Origin: Alloascoidea hylecoeti
Lineage: Eukaryota
Length of the DNA stretch: 25,206 nt
Direction of reading: 5' to 3'
Assembly (NCBI GenBank): GCA_001600815.1
Contig: BCKZ01000003.1
Span: 1,585,912-1,611,117, forward strand
Part shown: in pieces, positions 8,494 through 25,206 of the stretch
Layout: every line of letters starts with the position of its first letter
Numbering within the stretch: position 1 is the stretch's first letter
The notes under the pieces: model-generated
What the model was told of the DNA's origin: nothing
Seen by the model: the letters and a program-made list of their open reading frames with translations, nothing else
Database searches by the model: none
Translations under genes and position numbers: made by a program

Positions 8494-10456
8494 TTAATGG
8501 GTTTCTTCTTCCTCTGCTTCTTCTTCTGTGATCAACTTTCGTGCTTCTCTCATTCCCTTTTCGGCATCTACCCAAAAATAAATGGATGCTGAAATCGCGA
8601 CAAGAAATAAATTTGGTAAAAATGGATATCGATCGTTTCCAGTTTTATCTTGAATTACAGCAATAACAAGTGATCCTATCCAACCTGTAGCAACACCAAG
8701 GAAAATTTCAAGTCCAAAATATTGTGCTTCATTGCCTTCAGGTAGCAAAGTACTGTATAAAACACGATTAAGTGATCTCAATGCACTACCGCTACTGATA
8801 TAAAATATATCAAAAACCCAAAATTCGGCTCTATGTTTGTAACCAATTGTTAAACTTTTGTTGATTCCTAAACATCCCCAAAAATTACTGAATAATTGAA
8901 TTGCAAGGAAGATGTACGCCCAATTTTTAATTCCTAATCTTGTACGTGGGTATAAAAACATCCATAAAAGTGATCCTATTGAAGCAACAACGTATGACAT
9001 AAAAGAATAAATTGTATATTCTCCATCTGTTGATCCTAAACCCAAAGTACTTCTGAAAAGAAGTACAAATACTGAAAGAAAATTGCTATATGAAACATTC
9101 CAAATAACCCATGCAACACAAAGTTTATAAGCTTCTGGATATTCTTTGATTCCTTTAAAAAGAGTAAAAATTCTCTTGAAACTTAATTTCACATATGATA
9201 TATTTGGTGGTTTTTTCATTCCTTCAATTGATGGAATGAAAAATGCACCTATGATACAAAAGACAATGGTAATACAACCAGCAATTGTAATAGCCAATAA
9301 AAAGCTGTTTTCTTTTGGTTAGTGATAATTTGATAAAATGGATAATTGTTATATTTGAAAATACTTACTTCTCGTATCCCTTATCAAAAGCAAATCCTCT
9401 TGTGTATGAAATAATTATACCAATTAATAGGGCTGTAAGGCCTCCAACATTTCCAATAAAAAGGCCTAGAACACTAACTACACTTCCTCGTTTTAAAACG
9501 ATATCCCGTCTAACGTCTTCAGCTACTGTTCCTTTAGAGGCAACTCTAGCTCTCATAAATATAGGGATATATGAACCTTCCAATGCTTGATAAATTGAGT
9601 CAATTGAGTTTAAGAGAATATAAAGAACTGACATAGTTATTAAAATAGGGTATGTTTTATTTTTCAATCCCGCAAATGGAAGAGCGAATATACCAAAAAG
9701 AATAATTGTTGCGATCATTATAGTTTTTCTATTATTTGAATAATCCGCAAGTTGTGAGGTAAACAAAATCAATACTCCTTCAACAGCAGTGAAAATAGCT
9801 CTTAAATATAGGCTAAAAAATAAAATTATTATTTTTTTGTTAGATATGTTAAAGAGAAACTTTTAGTTAATTATAAAATTAGATTCTTCCATTGAATTTG
9901 TGAATCGAAGAAGCAATAACATCATCATATAAGAATAGTATTAATAATACTTACATATAACTGTTCATTCTTACTTCACCAACGCCAAATTTCACAAGAC
10001 AATCTCCTCCTCTTCTCAAGCAAGGTTCAGTAGAATCAGGTTGATGACCAAGACGGTTTGCAGCTGATTGAATAGCAGCAGGAACATAACTTCTAGCCAT
10101 GGATGATGTTGGACCAGTCTTAAATTTAAAGAGTTAACGTTAGTACCTTTTCTTGGAACGATATATATTCATAGATATTATAAATATAGTAATGATTGTA
10201 ATGGAGATATTCATAAATATCATTTACCTTCATAGAGTTCTTATTTGCTTACCGAGTAACAGATTAATAACCAAGTCAAGAGACTCTTTTTTGTATCCCA
10301 ATCTTTTAATTTGTTCTTTAATGATGAATTTACAGGATCCTCAAGATCAACATCATGATCAGACATTGCTCTACGCTGCTCAGTTTGGCTGGCACGATCA
10401 GAACTGTCATCTGTACTTGCTGAAACAGCACTCGATGAGATTGCTTTGGTTTCCAT
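8494..10456 (-). CDS. ATG22: Atg22-like MFS amino-acid efflux transporter, 4 exons (10456-10253, 10118-9955, 9812-9369, 9304-8494), 540 aa
   Basis: Splicing at GTAAGC/GTAAGT donors and TAG/AAG/CAG acceptors joins the pieces in frame (1623 nt). Branch sites TACTAAC (intron 1) and CACTAAC (intron 3). Motifs LADYSNNRK, LYSTLLPEGNEAQYFGL, WIGSLVIAVIQDKTGNDRYP, VDAEKG. Confidence 0.85.
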
Positions 10457-11019
10457 TTTTTGTTTTGCTTTTCTTATTATCTTCTGTTAACGATAATCCA
10501 AGAAATACCACGAATAGTTATAATAAAAATGAAACAATAGGATACCAAATAAATTTTTGACTGAAATATTTTATTAGAATAAGATCTTATTTATATATTT
10601 AATTTATACAAGTAATTATAAACTTTCTTAAAATTTTCAAAATTTCAATTTTTTCCACTGCTGTTTAGGTATTATACATATTTGGAAATGAGCAATATAC
10701 AAGCGCTAATGCTAGTATTGCTTTATTATCAGATTGAGATAGGAATACAAAATACATACTAGTGTTAGCGAATTTTCAACGGTATTCAATTTTTACCCTT
10801 CTTACAGAGGACGGAGTTAGAAAAAAACATATATAAATATGGTTGTAGTTAATTATGAATTGGCAATAGCATACATTAGTTCAATTGGAATTGAACAAAT
10901 ATCAGATTTACTGCGAAAATTACCTTAATTAATATTTTGCATGAATCTCTAAATCTAAATTTCTTTTCTTGCTGTAATCAACATTTGTTTATACGTATCA
11001 TTTAATGTTATTATGAATA

Positions 11020-11662
11020 TGTTGAATAGAATTAGATGTTGATTCTTGTTCGCTCATTGTTAATTGATGTCCTCAGATTGTATAAACACGTTGTTCTTAA
11101 ACTCTTGGAAATTAAATATGAATATATTTTGTTGGATATATTACACTCTTGGAACAGTTCACTAAAGGGTCAATTGGCTTTTTGGCGCAACTGGGAGAAC
11201 AGGCACTTTGAACTTTAGCATGGTAGCGGCGCCGCCACGAGAGGCATCAGGTCCGCCGTAGGACCGTAGTTTACATCAGTCTAGTTGAGGCTTAGTAGGG
11301 TAACGCATAAATGGCCCGAAAGTAAAATGTCCGAGTCAGTCTGCAAGAAGTCCGAAGCCCGAAAGATCACGGGGGTGAGCAGATATGGCGACTAGTAAAG
11401 TGACCTGCCTAAGGTTGGGGGGTGTGTTGGATATATTACACTCTTGGAACAGTTCACTAAAGGGTCGATTGGCTTTTTGGCGCAACTGGGAGAACAGGCA
11501 CTTTGAACTTTAACATATTTATTATATTATATTTTTACGATACTTTCTAAAATGTGGGAATTCCTCCATATAAATTATGTAATCCCCAAAAACTATTTAG
11601 TCTAATTAATCTAAATAATGAACTATAAAATTGTTTCACCATGTTCTTCCATATAATCAACA
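11020..11662. mobile_element. Solo LTR, family A (252 bp once the nested TRIM and its TSD are removed)
   Basis: TGTTGA...TCAACA termini. 5-bp TSD GAATA (11015-11019 and 11663-11667). Near-identical inverted copy at 16416-16668. Confidence 0.9.
11130..11515 (+). mobile_element. TRIM (terminal-repeat retrotransposon in miniature), non-autonomous, 386 bp
   Basis: LTRs 11130-11220 and 11425-11515 (91 bp, 2 mismatches, TG...CA). PBS TGGTAGCG at 11221. PPT-like AAGGTTGGGGGGTG at 11411-11424. TSD TATTT (11125-11129 and 11516-11520). 204-bp non-coding interior. Confidence 0.92.
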
Positions 11663-12342
11663 GAATATATGTGTCATTTCTGTATTTCTGGTTTTTGTAT
11701 AGCCTTCTTACTAATATTGTTGTAATATTAAATATAAAACCTTCTAAAGATACAGAATCAAGCATCTACTCGTATAGCGTTGGCTATTCCAGTTGTAAAT
11801 TTAAGTGTAGTATAGATAGAGTTAAGCTTAATCATATGCAGCTGAACTTTTTGGATCCGAATTTTCAGTTTTACCCTTTAATTTCGTCTCATCAAATTAA
11901 ATAACTGTTCCATCAATTAAAAACTTCCGACTATAAATTTCAGACAGTATGAGAGTAGATGAGGATGTGAATCAAAATCTATTTATAAGTTATAGGTCTC
12001 AAACTTATACTGGTATCCATATATTACGGGACTATGCATATGGCAGCAATAAAGATAAATTATGATAAATACTATTACTAAAAGCTACTTAATTTAATAA
12101 TTCTGATAATCTTAGTTCAATTTGAATTTTTCTGTGTTTCCGAGCTCATTCCAGGTCCAATCTCCCGAGTCCTGGCACACATTTGTGAGAACTTAATTCC
12201 ACTCAATGTTGACCTAACCAGTAATTTAGTGTTTGGCCTGTAGAAACACAGAAAAAAACCATATCGGCACGTATAAGACTTTGTTACGCAATGATTAACT
12301 AATGTTTTACTTTCAAATTTCAATATACGGATTATAAATGCT

Positions 12343-14283: not shown

Positions 14284-15338
14284 TTTCCTATATTGATAAA
14301 TTTGAATTTTGTGAAATAATTTAGAGTTTGGTTCGCAAATAAAGATTAGAAGATAAAGTTAGTTGAAAGGAAGTCACAGCTACGGCTCACAAATAAAACT
14401 CCATCTTACATCTTCTAATTTATAATTATTCATATATTTGGTGTTGTGATGATTCGGTAGATAATTATTGAACTTAACTGAGTATCACCTTTATTTCAAT
14501 CTTATAAGTAGTCGAATTCTACTAAATCTTTAAACTTATATTAAAATTTGTTCCTTTCTCCTTTCTCGCTAACATTAACCTCTTTATACTTTTTATAACA
14601 TAAACTACCGCTTCTGATACTAACAGCAATAGCTTCTATTAATGGAAACAAATATTCCTACTAATAGCACTATTGGCTATCAAAGCTACTATCAAGACCT
14701 ATAATTAGAAAACTAACACAGGGAGGATTCAGTCGAGACTTTCCGAACTATAAGGCCGATCCTCACAGTGTATGGATGTAATGGACATCTTTAAATCTTA
14801 ATCAGCATACATAGGCATAAGGATATTTAGGAATCTCGGAACTACTTACGGGGCGCATTCCCGTATCCCACCCAAAAACCAAACCAGCTTTAGTTTTAGT
14901 TGGGTGGATATAGTAACATTGACTAACAATCAATGTTAAGGAAGAAGGTACATGCTATGATATACCAAGCAAGCTTTTGATGCAAAAGGGTCTGATCCAT
15001 TGATAGCAACATTTGTATTGTTAGGAAAAATAAATCGCTGATCTCTTACAATGTATGTCGTATTATTTTCTAATGTTATAAAATGTGTTGACTCGGGGTA
15101 TTTGGTGAAGATAGATCACCTTCAGATATACTAAGACAACATTATAAAGTCTTAATGCAATTGATCAGTAATATAGTTTTAATAACTCTAATTTATTGAA
15201 ATCCTATCAAAATTACCAGATCTGGAGTCATGTATGCTCTATTTAATAAATTTAATGTTAAATGAATACTGTTGTTCGTGAACTCAAATCTAATTAAAGC
15301 ATGAAATGCTATAGCGCTAGTGGTCGATATATTGATAT

Positions 15339-15464
15339 TATTGGATATATAGTTATATAATTAAATTAGAATAGTTTTTGTTATTACATAGTTTCATATA
15401 TATGGGGTGATATTTATGAAGATCTTCATTTCCCTTATATATTAGCGAGTTGCCACATTATTTA
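15339..15464. repeat. LTR family B fragment, truncated by N gap
   Basis: Near-identical to 20705-20830; begins TATTGGATATATAG. Confidence 0.85.
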
Positions 15465-16229
15465 NNNNNNNNNNNNNNNNNNNNNNNNNNNNNNNNNNNN
15501 NNNNNNNNNNNNNNNNNNNNNNNNNNNNNNNNNNNNNNNNNNNNNNNNNNNNNNNNNNNNNNNNNNNNNNNNNNNNNNNNNNNNNNNNNNNNNNNNNNNN
15601 NNNNNNNNNNNNNNNNNNNNNNNNNNNNNNNNNNNNNNNNNNNNNNNNNNNNNNNNNNNNNNNNNNNNNNNNNNNNNNNNNNNNNNNNNNNNNNNNNNNN
15701 NNNNNNNNNNNNNNNNNNNNNNNNNNNNNNNNNNNNNNNNNNNNNNNNNNNNNNNNNNNNNNNNNNNNNNNNNNNNNNNNNNNNNNNNNNNNNNNNNNNN
15801 NNNNNNNNNNNNNNNNNNNNNNNNNNNNNNNNNNNNNNNNNNNNNNNNNNNNNNNNNNNNNNNNNNNNNNNNNNNNNNNNNNNNNNNNNNNNNNNNNNNN
15901 NNNNNNNNNNNNNNNNNNNNNNNNNNNNNNNNNNNNNNNNNNNNNNNNNNNNNNNNNNNNNNNNNNNNNNNNNNNNNNNNNNNNNNNNNNNNNNNNNNNN
16001 NNNNNNNNNNNNNNNNNNNNNNNNNNNNNNNNNNNNNNNNNNNNNNNNNNNNNNNNNNNNNNNNNNNNNNNNNNNNNNNNNNNNNNNNNNNNNNNNNNNN
16101 NNNNNNNNNNNNNNNNNNNNNNNNNNNNNNNNNNNNNNNNNNNNNNNNNNNNNNNNNNNNNNNNNNNNNNNNNNNNNNNNNNNNNNNNNNNNNNNNNNNN
16201 NNNNNNNNNNNNNNNNNNNNNNNNNNNNN
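15465..16229. other. Assembly gap (N run)
   Basis: Run of n. Confidence 1.
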
Positions 16230-16366
16230 TTTTCTAAAACTAAATAATGTGGCAACTCGCTAATATATAAGGGAAATGAAGATCTTCATAAATATCACCC
16301 CATATATATGAAACTATGTAATAACAAAAACTATTCTAATTTAATTATATAACTATATATCCAATA
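16230..16366. repeat. LTR family B fragment in inverted orientation, truncated by N gap
   Basis: Reverse complement of 20705-20841; ends ...ATATCCAATA. Confidence 0.85.
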
Positions 16367-16415
16367 AAATCATTCAAACTTACGGATTACATGAAGTATT
16401 AGTTTTAAATAGTTG

Positions 16416-16668
16416 TGTTGATTATATGCAAGAACATGGTGGAACAAATTTATAGTTCATTATTTAGATTAACTAGACTAAATAGTTTTCGGGGATTCCA
16501 TAATTTATATGGAGGAATTCCCACATTTTTAGAAAGTATCGTAAAAATATAATATAATAAATATATTCATATTTAATTTCCAAGACTTTAAGAACAATGT
16601 GTTTATACAATCTGAGGACATCAATTAACAATGAGCGAACAAGAATCAACATCTAATTCTATTCAACA
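16416..16668. mobile_element. Solo LTR, family A (253 bp), empty of the TRIM
   Basis: TGTTGA...TCAACA termini. TSD AGTTG (16411-16415 and 16669-16673). A single AAATA (16559-16563) marks where the 11 kb copy carries the TRIM. Confidence 0.92.
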
Positions 16669-16988
16669 AGTTGTTGTTATTTCAATTTTAATTAACTTAT
16701 TACATGCCTTGCATATTGGATATGCAGGGAGTACTTGGTAATTCATATACTACAGCAAGCCCCTTAATATTATTGCCACCTCCTTATTATTATTTAGCCT
16801 ACATAGTTACATATATAAAATAGTTAAATCCATTGGATTTAACTCTCCACTTTTTCTTATTCCTATTTTAATATATTATTTACTTTATTTTTTCACTTTA
16901 TTAGTTTTACCGATTATTAGATTTCCAATCTTTTCGTCTGTGAACTATTCAAACTACTCAATAACTACTTTAAAACTATTTAAACAAA

Positions 16989-18086
16989 ATGTCCGATAAC
17001 AAATTTGAATTTGGAAAAGACTTCGATATTTCAAANGAAGTCTTCAAAGCTACTAAAACAGGTGTTACTGCTGGTGAATTCGCAAAGTTTGAAAAAGGAT
17101 ACTATCTTCCTGTTGTCATTAAATGGCTCAAGATTAAACTGGTAACAATTGTNAACTCTACTGATATTGATATTCAAAAATTTTTAGACTGTACTTCTGT
17201 TAATTTTTATCCACCCAATTTTGCTCTTATTCTGGAATACTTATTAAAATTACGNTTTTCTACAAATCTTTTAAAGTACTACGAAGAAGACTTGAATGGT
17301 ATTGATCTGTTTTTTACTTTGAAAAAGGATTATAAAATTTTGGATAATGGAACTAGAATTGGATTGTTAAAAAATNTCTTTGATGAAACCGTTAAATCTG
17401 GCTGTAATGTAAAAAACTTCAATGAAAAGGTTAATGTAATTGTCAATTATTTTCCTCACTTGAAAAAATGTATCCCATTAATCACTATGTTCAATCTGTC
17501 TTCTGCNCAACAAGACCANGTNCTAATGAGAAAAGACCTTAATGGTGANAGTGAAACTGATAATATNAAATTTGAAGCAATGAAACATACAGANATTCTT
17601 TCTTATATTCGCAAGCTTACTGATAAAGGAGTTCTCCCAGAATCTTCAAACATTGAATCAAATANNACTGATGAAGTGAACTACNGAGAACATAAAGCAA
17701 AATTCTATAAAAATGTCCGCTGTTATCGCTGTCACAAATTTGGTCATGTCATGAACGATTGTCCACTCAACAAGATGAGAAAGCATCCAAAAAGATATGA
17801 GGTTATTCAATATGTTGAACTTCCGAGCGGCGCTGATATATACTATTCTGCTAGAAATGATTCTGATGAAGATGATGAAGAAGCAAATCTTGTTGAACAT
17901 GAAGAAAAAGTATTTCTTGTCTCTGATGTGGAATTTATTATCGATTCAGGAGCAACCTGTCATGTTGTGTATGATAAATCGATTTTGGATAATGTTTCTA
18001 CCTCTAAGACTTCAATCAAAGGTGTCGATGGCTTAAGGAATCTATCACCAAGTGGTTCTAAATTGCTTATAAGATCTTTTTGTTAG
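16989..18086 (+). mobile_element. Ty1/copia retrotransposon gag-protease ORF, 3'-truncated
   Basis: Zinc knuckle CYRCHKFGHVMNDC and copia-type protease FIIDSGATCHVV. The ORF ends at the gypsy LTR; no integrase or RT follows. Confidence 0.85.
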
Positions 18087-18251
18087 AGTTACACGCTACG
18101 ACGAACTGATCTTAATTAATTTCTAATAAAACTTAAAACTTTTATTTTAACTATTAAATACTTTTCTAGACGTTAACTAATATTCGGCCAAAATTAACTT
18201 TATTTTCGTGGTTTCGTTGAGAATCTATTTTTCTGATTTACTTCTCATACA
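18081..18251 (-). repeat. Putative 3' LTR of the Ty3/gypsy element (left end uncertain: 18081 or 18023)
   Basis: On the minus strand, PPT AAAAGGGAGGAG (18263-18252) is directly followed by TGTATGAG. Candidate ends are ...CTCTAACA (18081) or ...CGACA (18023). Confidence 0.6.
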
Positions 18252-20704
18252 CTCCTCCCTTTTAAACTAGGACGTCCTCGTCCTATGCTCCCTATTCTGC
18301 TCAGCTTTCTTCCTCAGGAACTCGTCGCAATACCTTGTCTTCATTTGGTTCTTCAATTTTTCTGGTGCTAATTCAAATTCCCTGCTGTGTATTTCTGATG
18401 CTGAATGGGGGTCACAATCTTTCCAAGTTACAGTGTAAATTCTAGAGAATTCATTGTGGTTTATCAATTGTTTCATTTCTTCTATTCTGGTTCTGACTTC
18501 TTTCGGTGTTCTAGGTGGTACTTTGGTGTAGACTTCGGGATTGTTGTATGGTTTAAGCCATTTTATGTTGACGTTCCGCCAGCGATTCTTAATGGTTCTA
18601 AAGTCGATTTCATAGGTGTTCTCATTCATCACGTTGGTTATTTCATAAGGTCCTAAATAAACTAGCTTCAATTTCTGTTCTATGGCTACAATTCCCTTGT
18701 TCTTCCTATCTATTAGTATCCAATCTCCCTTTTCATACTTACTGGGTCTTCTCTTCCTGTTCGTCTGTTCCTCTTGTTCTTTCTGTGCTTCTGTCATGTT
18801 ATCCCTAATTCTTTGGAGGATTGCTTTCATCTTGGTTACCTTTTCTTCAGCTGACTTTGATTTTCTACTTAGTGTTAACGGTTCTAGGTTCCTTGGGTCT
18901 GTTGGTTCGTATCTCAACTCAGCCATAAACGGTGAGCAATTTATTGATTTTTGGTGACTACTATTGTATGCAAATTCTAATATCGGTAAGTAGTCCTCCC
19001 AGTCGTCGTTTTCTCTTTTCACATAAGCTCTTAATAATTGGTTCAGTATCTTGTTCAGTCTTTCTGTCTGACCATCCGTGTCTGGGTGATTAACCGTCGA
19101 GAAATCTAGTTCTGTTCCAAGTAGTTCGTGCAAAGTCCTCCAAAAGGCTCCTAAAAATCTAATGTCTTTGTCTGAAATTATACTCCTTGGAGTACCGTGA
19201 AGGCGGAAAATTTGATCCACAAACAATTTTGCTGCCCCCTCCCCCGTTAATTCTTTTCGAGTGGCAATGAAGTGTCCCCGTTTGGTTAGTCTATCAATTA
19301 CTACAAAAATAGCATTATGTCCTTTCTTATTCTTCGGAATACCTGTAAAAAAATCCATTGATATTTGTTCCCATCTTTCTTTAGGTACTGGTAATGGCAT
19401 AAGTAGTCCTTGTGTCGCTCGGGTGGTTGTCCTTACTGTTTGGCAAGTGTAGCACTTATTAATATATCTCTTTATTTGTTTGAACATATTTTTCCAATAG
19501 TATTTCTTTGCTAATCACAAATACGTCTTATAATAACCAAAATGTCCACTCATCGGTACATCGTGTCCTATTTTCATAATCTTCTGTCTTAGTTTTCCAT
19601 TCGGTGTGTCCGGGACGCAAATTCTGTCTTCTTCATTATCCCCAACCGTTGTATTGAAGTACGATAATCCGTTGACTATGGAGTAGTGCTTAATATATGC
19701 GTTCATCTTCTTGGGTACCTCTTTATCGTTGCTTAAAATATCATAAATTTCATTGAAATCTTGGTCTTCTTTATAATGTTCTTTAATTTCTTTCAACAGT
19801 TCTTGGCTGTTGTCTGTTGGTGACAGTTCTATCGCGTGGGCTTTTAGGTCGACTCTGCTTAAGGCGTTTGCTGCTGAATTGGTTTTACCAGGTATATACT
19901 TAATGGTAAAATTAAATTCCGCCAGGAAGTCTATCCATCTAGCAATTCTGCTTTTGTTCAGTTGCTTTTGTTGATGAATNTANTGTANTGAATTATGGTC
20001 NGTNTGTANNACAAAGTGGTTGTCNTTCAAGTAATATTCCCACTCCTTTAGTGCAAACACTACCGCCATAAATTCTTTCTCCCTTGTTGGATAATTCAGT
20101 TCTGCTTTCTGTAACTTCTTTGAAGCGTAGCCCACTACTCCTATCAGTTTTCCATCTATTGTCTTTTCCTCTAGCGTAGCCCCTAATGATATATCGCACG
20201 CGTCTGTAGTCACTATAAATACTCTATCACCTTGTTGTGGTATTTGTGGTACTACTAAAATTGGTTCAGACGACAATTTCTGTTTTAATTCGTTAAACGC
20301 TGTGTCGCATTCTCCGTCCCAATCTCTGGCTTTGTTCGCGAATTCTATCATTGGCTTTGCTATCGTCGAGTACTGTGCAATGAATCTTCTGTACTAGTTG
20401 GCTAGGCCCAGAAATGATTGTGCCTCCTTGTCGTTCTTAGGTACCGGCCATTCTTTTATTGCCTTTATCTTCTTTTCGTCTGGCATAATGCCTTTATCTG
20501 TGATTCTATGTCCTAAAAAGTCTAATTCCTTTAACATGAACTCACATTTCTTTCTTTTTGCTCTTAACTTATTAATTCTCAGCTTCTCCAATACCAGTTT
20601 GAGATGCTGTTCGTGCTCTTTCTCGTTCCTTGAGTATATCAAGATGTCATCTAAATATACTATAACAAATTTTCCTTTAAACTCTGCTAAAACATCATTC
20701 ATAA

Positions 20705-21288
20705 TATTGGATATATAGTTATATAATTAAATTAAAATAGTTTTTGTTATTACATAGTTTCATATATATGGGGTGATATTTATGAAGATCTTCATTTCCC
20801 TTATATATTAGCGAGTTGCCACATTATTTAGTTTTAGAAAANNNNNNNNNNNNNNNNNNNNNNNNNNNNNNNNNNNNNNNNNNNNNNNNNNNNNNNNNNN
20901 NNNNNNNNNNNNNNNNNNNNNNNNNNNNNNNNNNNNNNNNNNNNNNNNNNNNNNNNNNNNNNNNNNNNNNNNNNNNNNNNNNNNNNNNNNNNNNNNNNNN
21001 NNNNNNNNNNNNNNNNNNNNNNNNNNNNNNNNNNNNNNNNNNNNNNNNNNNNNNNNNNNNNNNNNNNNNNNNNNNNNNNNNNNNNNNNNNNNNNNNNNNN
21101 NNNNNNNNNNNNNNNNNNNNNNNNNNNNNNNNNNNNNNNNNNNNNNNNNNNNNNNNNNNNNTATATTAGCGAGTTGCCACATTATTTAGTTTTAGAAAAA
21201 CACACGTTCTTTATAATATAAATTTATTACCAACTATGCCTCCGAAACAATTCAAGGACATCGCCACTGATGAGCCCATAACCCAACA
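20705..21288. mobile_element. LTR family B insertion in gypsy RT (about 226-bp solo LTR if the gap is spurious)
   Basis: TSD CATAA (20700-20704 and 21289-21293) splits FQYVM|NDVL. Termini TATTGG...CCAACA. Both gap flanks share a 38-nt overlap. Confidence 0.88.
20842..21161. other. Assembly gap (N run), possibly spurious
   Basis: The flanks overlap (TATATTAGCGAG...TTTAGAAAA). Confidence 0.95.
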
Positions 21289-22948
21289 CATAACGTACTG
21301 AAAGGTGGCCGGGGCAATGGTTAACCCAAACGGCATTACATTCCATTCAAAATGTCCATCTTTCGTCGTGAAACCTGTCTTTGCTCTATCTGCTTCATTT
21401 ATAACAATTTGGTGATAGCCAGGCATCAAGTCTAACTTCGAGAATACTTTCGCACCATGTAATTGATCTAGCAAGTCATTAATTACTGGTAAAGGGTACC
21501 TATTCTTAATCGTTTGGTTGTTCAGAAGCCTATAATCAACACATAATCTCATACTACCATCTTTCTTCTTTACAAATAACACTGGTGCCGAATATGGCGA
21601 CTGTGACCTGGATATTGACCCATTCTCCAACAGCTCTCTTAGCTGTCGTTGTAGTTCTTCATTATCCTTATACGACATTCTATAAGGAGCCCTAGCCGGT
21701 GGTTTAGACCCTTCCATTATATCTATGTTATGATAAAACTGGTGCTGTCTTTCCGGTACTCCTTTTGGTTGTATATTTGTCACAACATCTTCATATGCGC
21801 TCAGAAATTTGGGTAGCTCTGGTTCTAGATTTGTTGACTCTGCTACTTCGTTCACTTCCAACGGTTCTTGCCCTATGTCTTCAACTTTTAGTTGTACTCG
21901 TCCCCAACTGTTGTGTCTAATTTCCTTCAAAACTTCTGTCACACCAAGGATTTGGCACTTAACTGACTCAGGTTCATTACTTCTGAGGTTGCATTCACAG
22001 GTTCTACGATTAGTGAATATTCTGGTAAAATCTTTCAAAACTTTAAATACTTTATTACTTTCTTTAACTTCTTTAATACTTTCTCTTTTCTTTTCTATTT
22101 CTTTAGGTTTTTCTATTATTTCTCTAGATACAACAACACTTGGTTTTATATTTTTCATACTCTTGAAATCACATACATTATTTTTACATACGAATTTTCC
22201 TGCCACATTTTTCTTAATAATCAGGCCCTTTTCTCTGGGATTTGATTCTTCTTTTCCGTTGGAATCCTTTTTCTTTTCTAAATCAATTGTTTTTTTTCCA
22301 CTAACCATTGTGGGTCTTTTTGGGTTTTTATAATTTTTTTTGTTTTTTATATTTTTAACATTTTTTTCTATTTTTTCTGTGTTGTTGCTATCTTTCTCTA
22401 TTTTTTGGTAACATATTATCTTTTCTAGTTCTAATTCTGGGTCAGCACTCTGTTCCATATTCAAAATTCTCTTTGGGTCTCTTTCTAATCTTTCTTTAAA
22501 AATGAACGGTCTGCCTAAGTATACTTGGTGGCTAAGTCCTTCAGCTACCCAGAAGTGAATCTGCCAGTATCTGTCTTCATAGTTTAATTCTAACTTTACC
22601 ACACCTGTCACCGTCATTTCTTTACCCGATTGTGCTGTGTTCAATATTCTTGGGACACTTAACTGTCTGACCGCTCTAGAGGCTCCCACTAACTCAACTG
22701 TACTAACATCAATTAACATTGAAAAGCAACCCGAATCTATCAAACATGGGACTATGTTCCCATTGATTTTGAACGGAATTTCCTTTAACTTGCTGTTCAA
22801 AGGTAATTCTTCCTCGTTCTCTAGACCTAACTCGATTGATTCCTTGATGGTTTGTGCTATTGTGCTGGCCGTCGTGACTAATTTGTCTTCTTGTACCCGC
22901 CTCGGCATTACCCTTGGTTGGTTTGTCTGACTCTTAGCCTTGGACTGG

Positions 22949-23001
22949 GAACCTTTAGAACCAATATTAACGGTTCTTCTTAATATTGGTTGGCTTTTGG
23001 G
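22949..23001 (-). promoter_or_regulatory. -1 programmed ribosomal frameshift signal (slippery heptamer plus hairpin/pseudoknot)
   Basis: C CCA AAA in the gag frame (23001-22995). Stem AACCAATATTAA/TTAATATTGGTT. Loop GAACC is complementary to downstream GGTTC. Pol lies in the -1 frame. Confidence 0.8.
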
Positions 23002-23143
23002 CACTCTTGCTTCATGTGCCCTTTTTCATGGCAATGGTAACATCTACCGTCTCTTTTTAATACTTTTAGTTCCTTCCGCGTTAATCTCTTTCCTGGCATT
23101 AACGCTGTTACCGTCATTTCCGTATCGCCATCCGCATCGATTC
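22980..23143 (-). pseudogene. Gypsy gag C-terminal fragment (not in the ORF track)
   Basis: Translates as [53 protein letters not shown], with a CCHC knuckle. The upstream part is replaced by the repeat at 23144. Confidence 0.88.
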
Positions 23144-23238
23144 TTCTAACATGCGAAACTGAACCTCATGCCGTATTTACATACTATGTATTCCGCTGCC
23201 GTGAAGCATATTCATAGTTAATATATGCATCAATTCTC
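23144..23238 (+). repeat. Unclassified dispersed repeat, copy 1 (at least 95 bp)
   Basis: Identical to 25112-25206; truncates gag. Confidence 0.9.
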
Positions 23239-23791
23239 TTAATCACAACGGACTATGCAGTCCTATCCAAAACTTGAAATTTAAATTATTCCACCTCACC
23301 ATTAAAAATATTTATATATAAAATATGGAGAATAAATCTGGCATCCTAAGAATTATAATCATATATTTTAAAATTAGTTTATTATTTAGAATTGTGGATA
23401 GATGAGTATTTTTAGAATTAGTATACAAATATTGGTTTAACTATGAAGGTCTTACTCCTCGATAGTGTCTGAAAGTTACGTAATTTGTTAATATATATAT
23501 TAAAGACACCAATTGTGTGTGAATGAGTCAATATATTTGANATATTATTTTAAAATAAATTATTATTAAAGTATATCAATATTATNTATACACTGTAAAA
23601 TAATTTTGGATGATTATATGGGTGGTACTTGAATCTTTTATTTCGCTACATTTCTTAACTTTTGAAGTTTGCAAAAATATGTGGGGATTGCTTTTGCTCT
23701 GTTTTTTCGATGTCGTCGGACTGTTGTCTTGGTAATAAATTAGAAAACGTTCTATTTTTCCAAAAAGGTAGCGAATGTACGGGTGTAAGAG

Positions 23792-24066
23792 NNNNNNNNN
23801 NNNNNNNNNNNNNNNNNNNNNNNNNNNNNNNNNNNNNNNNNNNNNNNNNNNNNNNNNNNNNNNNNNNNNNNNNNNNNNNNNNNNNNNNNNNNNNNNNNNN
23901 NNNNNNNNNNNNNNNNNNNNNNNNNNNNNNNNNNNNNNNNNNNNNNNNNNNNNNNNNNNNNNNNNNNNNNNNNNNNNNNNNNNNNNNNNNNNNNNNNNNN
24001 NNNNNNNNNNNNNNNNNNNNNNNNNNNNNNNNNNNNNNNNNNNNNNNNNNNNNNNNNNNNNNNNNN
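23792..24066. other. Assembly gap (N run)
   Basis: Run of n. Confidence 1.
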
Positions 24067-25090
24067 CAAAATGAATTAAGAACTGCTGATTATAAACCTG
24101 TTTATTTGGAATTATTTTATAATGATAGACTCCAATTGTTGAAGTTATGGAAAGTGGAAATGATCGAATTATATAATTCTATTGGAAGTTATGGTTTGTT
24201 AATNATGATAAATTTAATTTGAATATTAATGTTATTAAACCAATTATTGGAGAAAAGATTAAAATTACAAAACAACAAATTGCAGAATTTATTCATAGTG
24301 TTGGGAATCGGTGAAACTTTTGCTCCAAAGGATTTTTCAAAATGTTGCTGGTTGCAAATGAATTATTAAATCATTATTTCCAAACAGATGTGTGTGTTAT
24401 CAAATTTTATTTTATTGTTTTAGTATGACTCCTGGTGCTGAACCTTTAAAAGATGGTGATATTGTTTCTTCAAAAGCAGAATTTAGAGCTGTTATTAATC
24501 AATCCAATGGTAGAGTTGTTGAAGTTTATGGTCCTATTTCGAGCAATAATTATAAACAATTTTACAAGAAATCATACTGCTTATGAAAATTCTTTTCAAA
24601 AAGTACAGGAACTCCAATGCAAATTACTTTATCAACTGCACAAGATGTTGCTTTTTTAAAATTAATACAATGATTTCTACTTGAATGTTGAAATTTTTGA
24701 ATAGGTCAAACTTTGACTTTTAGGTTAGATTTTAATATTTTCAGTGAAGTATCAACAGCTTGTCAAATTTTAGTTGAAATGTCTTCAAAAGAAATTATTC
24801 AAATTGGTACAGTTGATTATCTAGCTTCTGCATCTCATGGTAATCCAGCTATTGATGATTTTGAAGCAAATGATAACTTTATCGAAAAACTATTATGTTT
24901 GAAAATGCTATTCTTTTNACAACTTCTTCTGAAGCTTATGCTATTGTTTCTGGTGATCATAATCCAATTCATGTTTCTAGAGTGTTTTGTAGTATTCTCT
25001 GCAAATGATGTTGCTTTGCAATTAAGAGCTTANTTGAATTATTGTTGGTATGGTCTTATCTTATAATAATAGTTGGTTTTTCTAAGGATG
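24067..25090 (+). pseudogene. FAS1: Decayed fatty acid synthase beta-subunit fragment (dehydratase/MaoC region)
   Basis: Across shifting frames: TADYKPVYLEL, FYWKLW, MTPGAEPLKDGDIVSS, VINQSNGRVVEVYG, SFQKV, KEIIQIGTVDYLASASHGNP, AIVSGDHNPIHVSRVF, VGMVL. Collinear with fungal Fas1, with many indels and stops. Confidence 0.85.
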
Positions 25091-25111
25091 AAATCTTTAT
25101 TTATGATTTAA

Positions 25112-25206
25112 TTCTAACATGCGAAACTGAACCTCATGCCGTATTTACATACTATGTATTCCGCTGCCGTGAAGCATATTCATAGTTAATATATGCATCA
25201 ATTCTC
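25112..25206 (+). repeat. Unclassified dispersed repeat, copy 2 (runs off the window)
   Basis: Identical to 23144-23238; abuts the FAS1 relic. Confidence 0.9.

Follow-up and report, generated by a model that had tools for sequence, protein, structure and literature searches.

A probable 386-bp TRIM/SMART-class LTR retrotransposon nested in a solo LTR of a budding yeast

A solo long terminal repeat (LTR) of Alloascoidea hylecoeti, located in a 25,206-nucleotide stretch of DNA that was analyzed as a whole and is referred to here as the window, is interrupted by 386 bp bounded by two nearly identical short repeats. What is this insert: a mobile element that is complete in itself and spreads in its short form, a remnant of a longer coding retrotransposon, or a product of the assembly? 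Our data argue strongly for the first answer. The insert is very probably a complete miniature non-coding LTR retrotransposon of the TRIM/SMART class, and a member of a repeated yeast family. Budding yeasts are a model for LTR retrotransposition (Ty1, Ty3, and Ty5), and what is known of the minimal cis requirements of the process comes so far from mini-Ty constructs made in the laboratory. A family of 386-bp elements found in nature would reveal which minimal packaging, priming, and integration signals are kept by selection in a yeast, and it would show how a 91-bp LTR both promotes and terminates transcription. If the LTR is truly present in hundreds of copies, it would also be a major source of ectopic recombination and regulatory change. 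Annotation tools with a default minimum LTR length of 100 bp miss elements of this kind.

Structure and insertion site of the element

The element occupies positions 11130 to 11515 (386 bp) and is composed of two 91-bp LTRs and a 204-bp interior. The 5′ LTR (11130 to 11220, plus strand, TGTTGG...TTTAGCA) and the 3′ LTR (11425 to 11515, plus strand, TGTTGG...TTTAACA) both begin with TGTTGGAT, have TG..CA ends, and agree at 89 of 91 positions (97.8%), the mismatches lying at 11172/11467 (A/G) and 11218/11513 (G/A). The interior (11221 to 11424, plus strand) is non-coding, with a G+C content of 54% versus 32% for the window. At its left edge is a PBS-like octamer, TGGTAGCG (11221 to 11228, plus strand), which starts at the first base past the 5′ LTR with zero gap. 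This octamer occurs once in the 25.2-kb window when both strands are searched; shuffled sequences contained it 0.09 times on average, with at least one match in 9 of 100 shuffles. At the right edge, the polypurine-tract-like sequence AAGGTTGGGGGGTG (11411 to 11424, plus strand, 11 purines among 14 bases) adjoins the 3′ LTR. The longest ATG-initiated open reading frame (ORF) lying fully within the element is 42 amino acids; one ORF of 60 amino acids overlaps the element and begins outside it, in the host LTR. The element gave no match to the gag/pol elements of the window. Immediately outside the LTRs are two copies of TATTT (11125 to 11129 and 11516 to 11520, both plus strand), forming a target site duplication (TSD). 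An earlier sequence-only reading of the window had described the LTR pair, the position of the PBS, the polypurine tract, the TATTT duplication, and the absence of an ORF, and all of these were reproduced here from the sequence. Thus, the element has the short TG..CA repeats, the length below 1 kb, the non-coding interior, the polypurine tract adjoining the 3′ repeat, and the 4- to 6-bp TSD by which TRIM and SMART elements are defined. A further defining feature, that the short form itself makes up a repeated, spreading family, was found on the basis of contig depth and not of counted copies.

The solo LTR that hosts the element belongs to a different family. It spans 11020 to 11662 on the plus strand, measures 252 bp without the insert (11020 to 11129 plus 11516 to 11662), has 6-bp inverted ends (TGTTGA..TCAACA), and is flanked by its own duplication, GAATA (11015 to 11019 and 11663 to 11667). 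A paralogous solo LTR of the host family lies at 16416 to 16668 on the minus strand, between two copies of AGTTG (16411 to 16415 and 16669 to 16673), and it carries a single TATTT (16559 to 16563) and no insert. In BLAST comparison, the paralog matched the host LTR to the left of the insert over 110 nt (98% identity) and to the right of it over 148 nt (95% identity), and the two matches overlapped by exactly 5 nt (16559 to 16563), namely, the lone TATTT. Neither excision nor LTR-LTR recombination would leave such a site, so the difference between the two copies is an insertion made with a 5-bp staggered cut. These data demonstrate that the element entered the host LTR by an integrase-type event, as is evident from the TSD and the precise empty paralogous site. 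Accordingly, the earlier proposals that the element is nested in a solo LTR whose empty counterpart lies in the same window, and that it arrived by integrase-type insertion, both hold.

Evidence for a repeated family

Logan contigs of four sequencing runs were aligned to positions 10900 to 11800. Two of the runs, X1 and X3, come from the same organism and from different studies, X2 is a wood-decay metagenome, and X7 is an insect metagenome whose contigs contributed just two short, poorly matching pieces. The unique flank contigs had depths of 57 and 52.8 in X1, 9.8 and 5.64 in X3, and 9.32 and 14.5 in X2. They were 989 to 1096 letters long, and five of the six showed no differences, the remaining one (X3, 1068 letters) showing a single difference. 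The main interior contigs covered 11206 to 11355 at a depth of 1537.7 in X1, 11254 to 11391 at 142.7 in X3, and 11196 to 11361 at 184.6 in X2, and thus stood at 13 to 29 times the flank depth in these three runs. A minor variant that spans the border between interior and 3′ LTR (11267 to 11432) was present at depths of 188.3 in X1 and 21 in X3. Since high-depth contigs are unbroken over 11196 to 11391 and the variant extends over 11267 to 11432, these results indicate that the short interior itself is present many times.

The LTRs are deeper still. Summed depth at LTR position 11463 was 51,008 in X1, 8,075 in X3, and 4,909 in X2; summed contig word depth is no copy number and may be inflated by overlapping contigs, and, read as an order of magnitude only, it suggests tens to hundreds of LTR copies. 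Moreover, contigs diverge exactly at the LTR ends into mutually different AT-rich flanks. Past 11515 to 11517, 19 diverging contigs were seen in X1, and before 11425 there were 3 in X1, 6 in X3, and 7 in X2; agreement among the diverging flanks was 0.52 to 0.58, and 139 further loose ends exist beyond those listed. This is the pattern expected if numerous solo LTRs or elements lie scattered over different sites. The family size is an estimate from word depth; among the contigs, a second complete copy bounded by a duplication of its own did not appear. Two LTR-derived probes, a 30-mer and a 20-mer, returned no match when scanned against a collection of metagenome contigs.

A third LTR-like piece lies elsewhere in the window, at 901 to 1013 on the minus strand (113 bp, TGTTGG...CAACA, with no clean duplication). 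It is diverged and resembles the element LTR in its first ~45 to 55 nt only (82% over 45 nt, E = 2.6e-7). This piece may be an LTR of a related family, possibly that of the helper, sharing the end recognized by integrase and U3. Together with the depth of the interior contigs and the varied flanks at the LTR ends, it agrees with the suggestion, made from the sequence before any contigs were compared, that the element belongs to a family.

The copy in the window departs from the family majority at several positions. At 11250/11251 (plus strand), most members have GTTCGA, which gives the 11-mer GGTTCGAGTCC, and this copy lacks these 6 nt; contigs bearing GTTCGA accounted for 1537.7 of a total depth of 1537.7 at this site in X1, for 184.6 of 184.6 in X2, and for 111.8 of 210.7 in X3. 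Further substitutions relative to the majority occur at 11265, 11357, and 11362. Furthermore, positions 11168 and 11463, which correspond to each other in the two LTRs, are both G in this copy and A in nearly all other contigs of the family, and the shared G fits the copying of both LTRs from one template. The 6-nt deletion, the substitutions, and the two differences between the 91-bp LTRs imply that the copy is not very fresh, and with the changes that it has since acquired or inherited the copy itself may be inactive. The view that the family was recently mobile is therefore not fully supported by this copy, whose LTRs differ at 2 of 91 positions and whose interior differs from the majority and carries the 6-nt deletion.

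Could the insert instead be what a single internal deletion left of a full-length coding retrotransposon, with no family spreading in the short form? Deletion is probably how all TRIMs begin, and summed depth climbs 2- to 4-fold over the last ~60 nt of the interior (11365 to 11426) relative to its middle, as it might if other elements shared that end. However, contigs at 13 to 29 times the flank depth run unbroken across 11196 to 11391 and a second variant covers 11267 to 11432, and nothing similar to the interior was found in the coding elements of the window; we thus consider a one-off remnant very improbable. An assembly artefact or a local tandem duplication in place of an insertion is hardly credible. 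It is true that the window is a draft containing 1386 N with odd repeats at gap edges, and that none of the 26 contig pieces listed (of which there are 719 further) bridges the junctions between host LTR and element at the locus. Nonetheless, the TSD, the precise empty paralog, and the correct placement of the primer site and polypurine tract speak against both, as do the LTR ends, which coincide with the points at which dozens of independent contigs diverge in three runs. Contigs of the host LTR family that skip 391 nt, i.e., the 386 bp and one duplication, are also present in the Logan data and, like the G shared by the two LTRs, fit retrotransposition. One contig of unique depth (59, 5.61, and 10.7) skips 394 nt (11124 to 11519) and corresponds either to the paralog at 16416 to 16668 or to an empty allele.

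Priming, helper, and transcription

The octamer TGGTAGCG suggests how a member of this family could be copied. It equals the first 8 nt of a probe, beginning TGGTAGCGCCGCTCGG, that is complementary to the 3′ end of S. cerevisiae initiator tRNA-Met (PMC11791190), and likewise the initial 8 nt of the Ty1 sequence that starts at nt 335 and begins TGGTAGCGCC (PMC7055915). Past these 8 nt, the primer site of the element departs from the S. cerevisiae sequence. By analogy to S. cerevisiae and from the 8-nt identity, we infer that the primer is initiator tRNA-Met. An element RNA would begin in the 5′ LTR, end in the 3′ LTR, and be packaged by the Gag protein of an autonomous element elsewhere. Minus-strand DNA would then be primed at TGGTAGCG by the 3′ end of the tRNA, plus-strand synthesis would start from the G-rich tract that precedes the 3′ LTR, and the integrase of the helper would insert the TG..CA-ended DNA with a 5-bp staggered cut, the cut being the step that the TSD and the empty paralog show directly. 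Self-priming of the Tf1 type was considered and rejected: such elements pair over about 11 nt with the start of their own RNA, whereas the longest Watson-Crick run between the LTR and 11221 to 11260 is 5 nt, a length reached in 375 of 500 shuffles.

The helper is probably of the Ty1/copia type rather than the Ty3/gypsy type, to judge from the TGTTG...AACA termini, the gapless primer site, and the 5-bp duplication of the element. A review of Candida elements gives TGTTG..CAACA ends as typical of Ty1-like elements and a gap of 2 to 10 bp between LTR and primer site as typical of the gypsy class (PMC4139406), and copia helpers are likewise proposed for the fungal Helenus elements in Kojima's study (PMC10886601). 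Within the window, no helper was found: neither the LTR, nor the primer site, nor the interior of the element recurs in the gypsy and copia-like elements there. The sequence-only reading held that the element borrows the machinery of an autonomous element. That dependence we can infer for the family; the two coding elements in the window, the Ty3/gypsy pol and the copia-like gag-protease, share nothing with it.

Transcription is the point at which the structure counts against a TRIM/SMART assignment, as a yeast Pol II promoter, R, and U5 would scarcely fit together into 91 bp. An alternative is that the element is a TRIM with its own Pol III promoter, similar to TRIMp3 elements, in which TFIIIC is recruited by two boxes, A in the LTR and B in the interior. 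The candidate A box is TGGCGCAACTGG, at 11183 to 11194 on the plus strand (LTR positions 54 to 65) and again at 11478 to 11489; it is a pattern match and serves as a lead only. The pattern TRGCNNARNNGG has just these two matches in the window, one in each LTR, and shuffles gave a mean of 1.01 per 25-kb window on both strands. The candidate B box is the majority-variant 11-mer GGTTCGAGTCC, which fits the tRNA T-arm/B-box consensus. In most family members it begins 30 nt past the LTR, on the same strand as the A-like box and 67 nt downstream of the start of that box, and the pattern GGTTCGANTCC, with up to one mismatch, has 0 matches in the window. PMC10886601 gives GGTTC as the core of the B box; Helenus TRIMs are defined there by conservation of box A and box B, and 386 bp fits their size range of 311 to 1263 bp. 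A Pol III promoter would also account for transcription from so short an LTR. With the boxes divided in this way between LTR and interior, an active promoter would form only where a 5′ LTR leads into the interior, and the transcript would end at the T5 run of the LTR or at T runs in the AT-rich flank.

Several observations weigh against Pol III transcription. No tRNA-like gene was detected in this copy by ARAGORN or Rfam, or by ARAGORN in a majority variant built by script. The T5 run (11179 to 11183) directly before the A-like box separates it from the expected start site, a position at which Pol III would be prone to terminate. Both motifs were noticed post hoc. Ty1 makes an extra contact with the T arm of its primer tRNA. 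Judged by eye against the probe of PMC11791190, the 11-mer comes close to full complementarity with the T arm of initiator tRNA in S. cerevisiae, and it could therefore be an extra primer-tRNA contact and not a promoter box. The B-like box lies outside the LTR, unlike those of Helenus, Ajax, and Cassandra, and at its fifth base the A-like box deviates from the TRGCY given for Helenus in PMC10886601. Overall, a TRIM with its own Pol III promoter seems to us unlikely, and the fuller proposition, a budding-yeast family with 91-bp LTRs in hundreds of copies that is transcribed by Pol III from a promoter split between LTR and interior, quite unlikely. If it were true, a TRIM with split A- and B-like boxes would represent a new TRIMp3 architecture and the first TRIM described in Saccharomycotina.

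Other identities were sought and rejected. The interior is not predicted to be a structured RNA (fold z of +1.29, with 185 of 200 shuffles at least as stable), and neither interior nor element gave a relevant Rfam match. A retrozyme was likewise dismissed, as Rfam gave no match at E values up to 10 in 10500 to 12200 or at the gathering score over the whole window. Membership in Helenus, Cassandra, or Ajax fails on the absence of a tRNA or 5S unit in ARAGORN and Rfam searches, only the A-like box lying within the LTR. There are no tRNA genes in the window, and none was found in the element or in the majority-variant model with relaxed ARAGORN settings.

Relation to known elements and neighboring sequences

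The miniature LTR retrotransposon reading places the element among a recognized kind of mobile DNA. The closest structural likeness is to FRetro129, a SMART element described in PMC3281118 as 292 bp long with 85-bp repeats, a 122-bp interior, and a 5-bp duplication. Both have very short repeats (85 versus 91 bp) and a tiny non-coding interior (122 versus 204 bp), and the element shares with SMARTs and TRIMs as portrayed there the TG(T)..(A)CA ends, the 5-bp duplication, the occurrence of solo LTRs despite short repeats, and the presumed mobilization in trans. At 386 bp, it is longer than the 292-bp SMART and shorter than the classical TRIMs of 500 to 900 bp in the same source, and its host is a yeast whereas theirs are plants; the likeness is one of structure.

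Within budding yeasts, the nearest parallel is Candida albicans, for which PMC4139406 records 34 LTR families with LTRs of 127 to 780 bp and 3 to 30 copies per family. Four of its elements, Tca1, Tca9, Tca10, and Tca13, are non-coding, retain an intact primer site, polypurine tract, and 5-bp duplications, and are "presumably" trans-activated (PMC4139406). Like them, the element resides in a budding yeast, lacks gag and pol, and combines a PBS-like octamer, a polypurine tract, and a 5-bp TSD. In contrast, those whose size is stated measure kilobases (Tca1, 5614 bp; Tca10, an interior of ~2 kb; PMC4139406, summarizing Goodwin and Poulter 2000) and not 386 bp, an LTR of 91 bp falls outside the reported range, and the LTR depth of the element suggests far more copies, a comparison that is by published description only.

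TRIMs are known from other fungi as well. According to PMC8549362, Parastagonospora nodorum and Zymoseptoria tritici contain them in abundance and with recent activity, and RLX_TRIM_Sinope of P. nodorum resembles the element in being fungal, below 400 bp on average, relatively high in G+C, and present in high copy. Elements of the Sinope type, as presented there, inhabit Pezizomycotina genomes with RIP, whereas the element is found in Saccharomycotina. The tRNA-bearing Helenus TRIMs are reported from Pucciniales and some Agaricomycetes, with none from yeasts in the excerpted sections of Kojima 2024 (PMC10886601). They are similarly miniature and fungal, with a 5-bp duplication, a probable dependence on copia elements, and Pol III box-like motifs; however, as described there, they contain a tRNA-like unit with both boxes in the LTR, and the element has no tRNA-like unit and carries its B-like box in the interior.

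A functional precedent comes from S. cerevisiae, where Xu and Boeke are said to have found in 1990 that a mini-Ty1 without coding sequence transposes when Gag and Pol are supplied in trans. Mini-Ty1s are laboratory constructs that keep several hundred nucleotides of each Ty1 end. The element differs from them in belonging to a natural family and in having an interior of only 204 nt enclosed by its 91-bp LTRs. With Ty1 it has the initial 8 nt of the primer site in common (PMC7055915).

The host was also examined. All species-named relatives of a 6-phosphogluconolactonase-like protein encoded in the window (~50 among the 120 matches listed) belong to Saccharomycotina, with 53 to 71% identity, and none of the 120 listed is a close named relative. 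The uniform placement of these relatives bears out the earlier guess, made from the sequence, of a budding-yeast-like genome. The novelty attached to that guess was too strong, given the non-coding LTR elements of C. albicans and the TRIMs of filamentous ascomycetes and other fungi. No TRIM from a budding yeast was found in the full-text literature searched, a body of text that has Repbase and most subscription journals outside its coverage. Altogether, the element is an unusually small but not fundamentally new mobile DNA, of a kind that is already known. In the wood-decay metagenome X2, the contigs over the flanks of the locus (10900 to 11048 and 11606 to 11800; 989 and 1096 letters) showed zero differences, indicating that the sample contained this yeast or a strain very close to it.

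The surroundings of the element contain further mobile DNA, and positions 15331 to 25206 form a nest of mobile-element remains. A Ty3/gypsy pol lies in pieces on the minus strand at 18267 to 23004, comprising reverse transcriptase (21211 to 23004 and 20394 to 20702), RNase H (19515 to 20351), and integrase (18267 to 19487), with a polypurine tract and a ~169-bp 3′ LTR at about 18081 to 18249, also on the minus strand. A copia-like gag-protease ORF occupies 16989 to 18086 on the plus strand, and the Ty3/gypsy element appears to have inserted into it. A ~134-bp repeat is present in three copies that are 98 to 99% identical (15331 to 15464, 16241 to 16372, and 20697 to 20830), each at the edge of an N run. 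Two copies form an inverted pair around the N run at 15465 to 16229. At the N run of 20842 to 21161, 38 nt are repeated directly on both sides (21162 to 21199), and the repeat copy there interrupts the gypsy reverse transcriptase. This repeat could be an element with a masked or unassembled interior, or a scaffolding artefact. A 95-nt stretch is 100% identical at 23144 to 23238, where it adjoins the zinc-knuckle region of the gypsy gag, and at 25112 to 25206, 1968 bp away, where it runs off the end of the window. On the other side of the element, a gene for an ATG22-like vacuolar effluxer (8494 to 9772, minus strand) is split into ORFs at 9365 to 9772 and 8494 to 9297, which may reflect an intron, a frameshift, or an error in the draft sequence.
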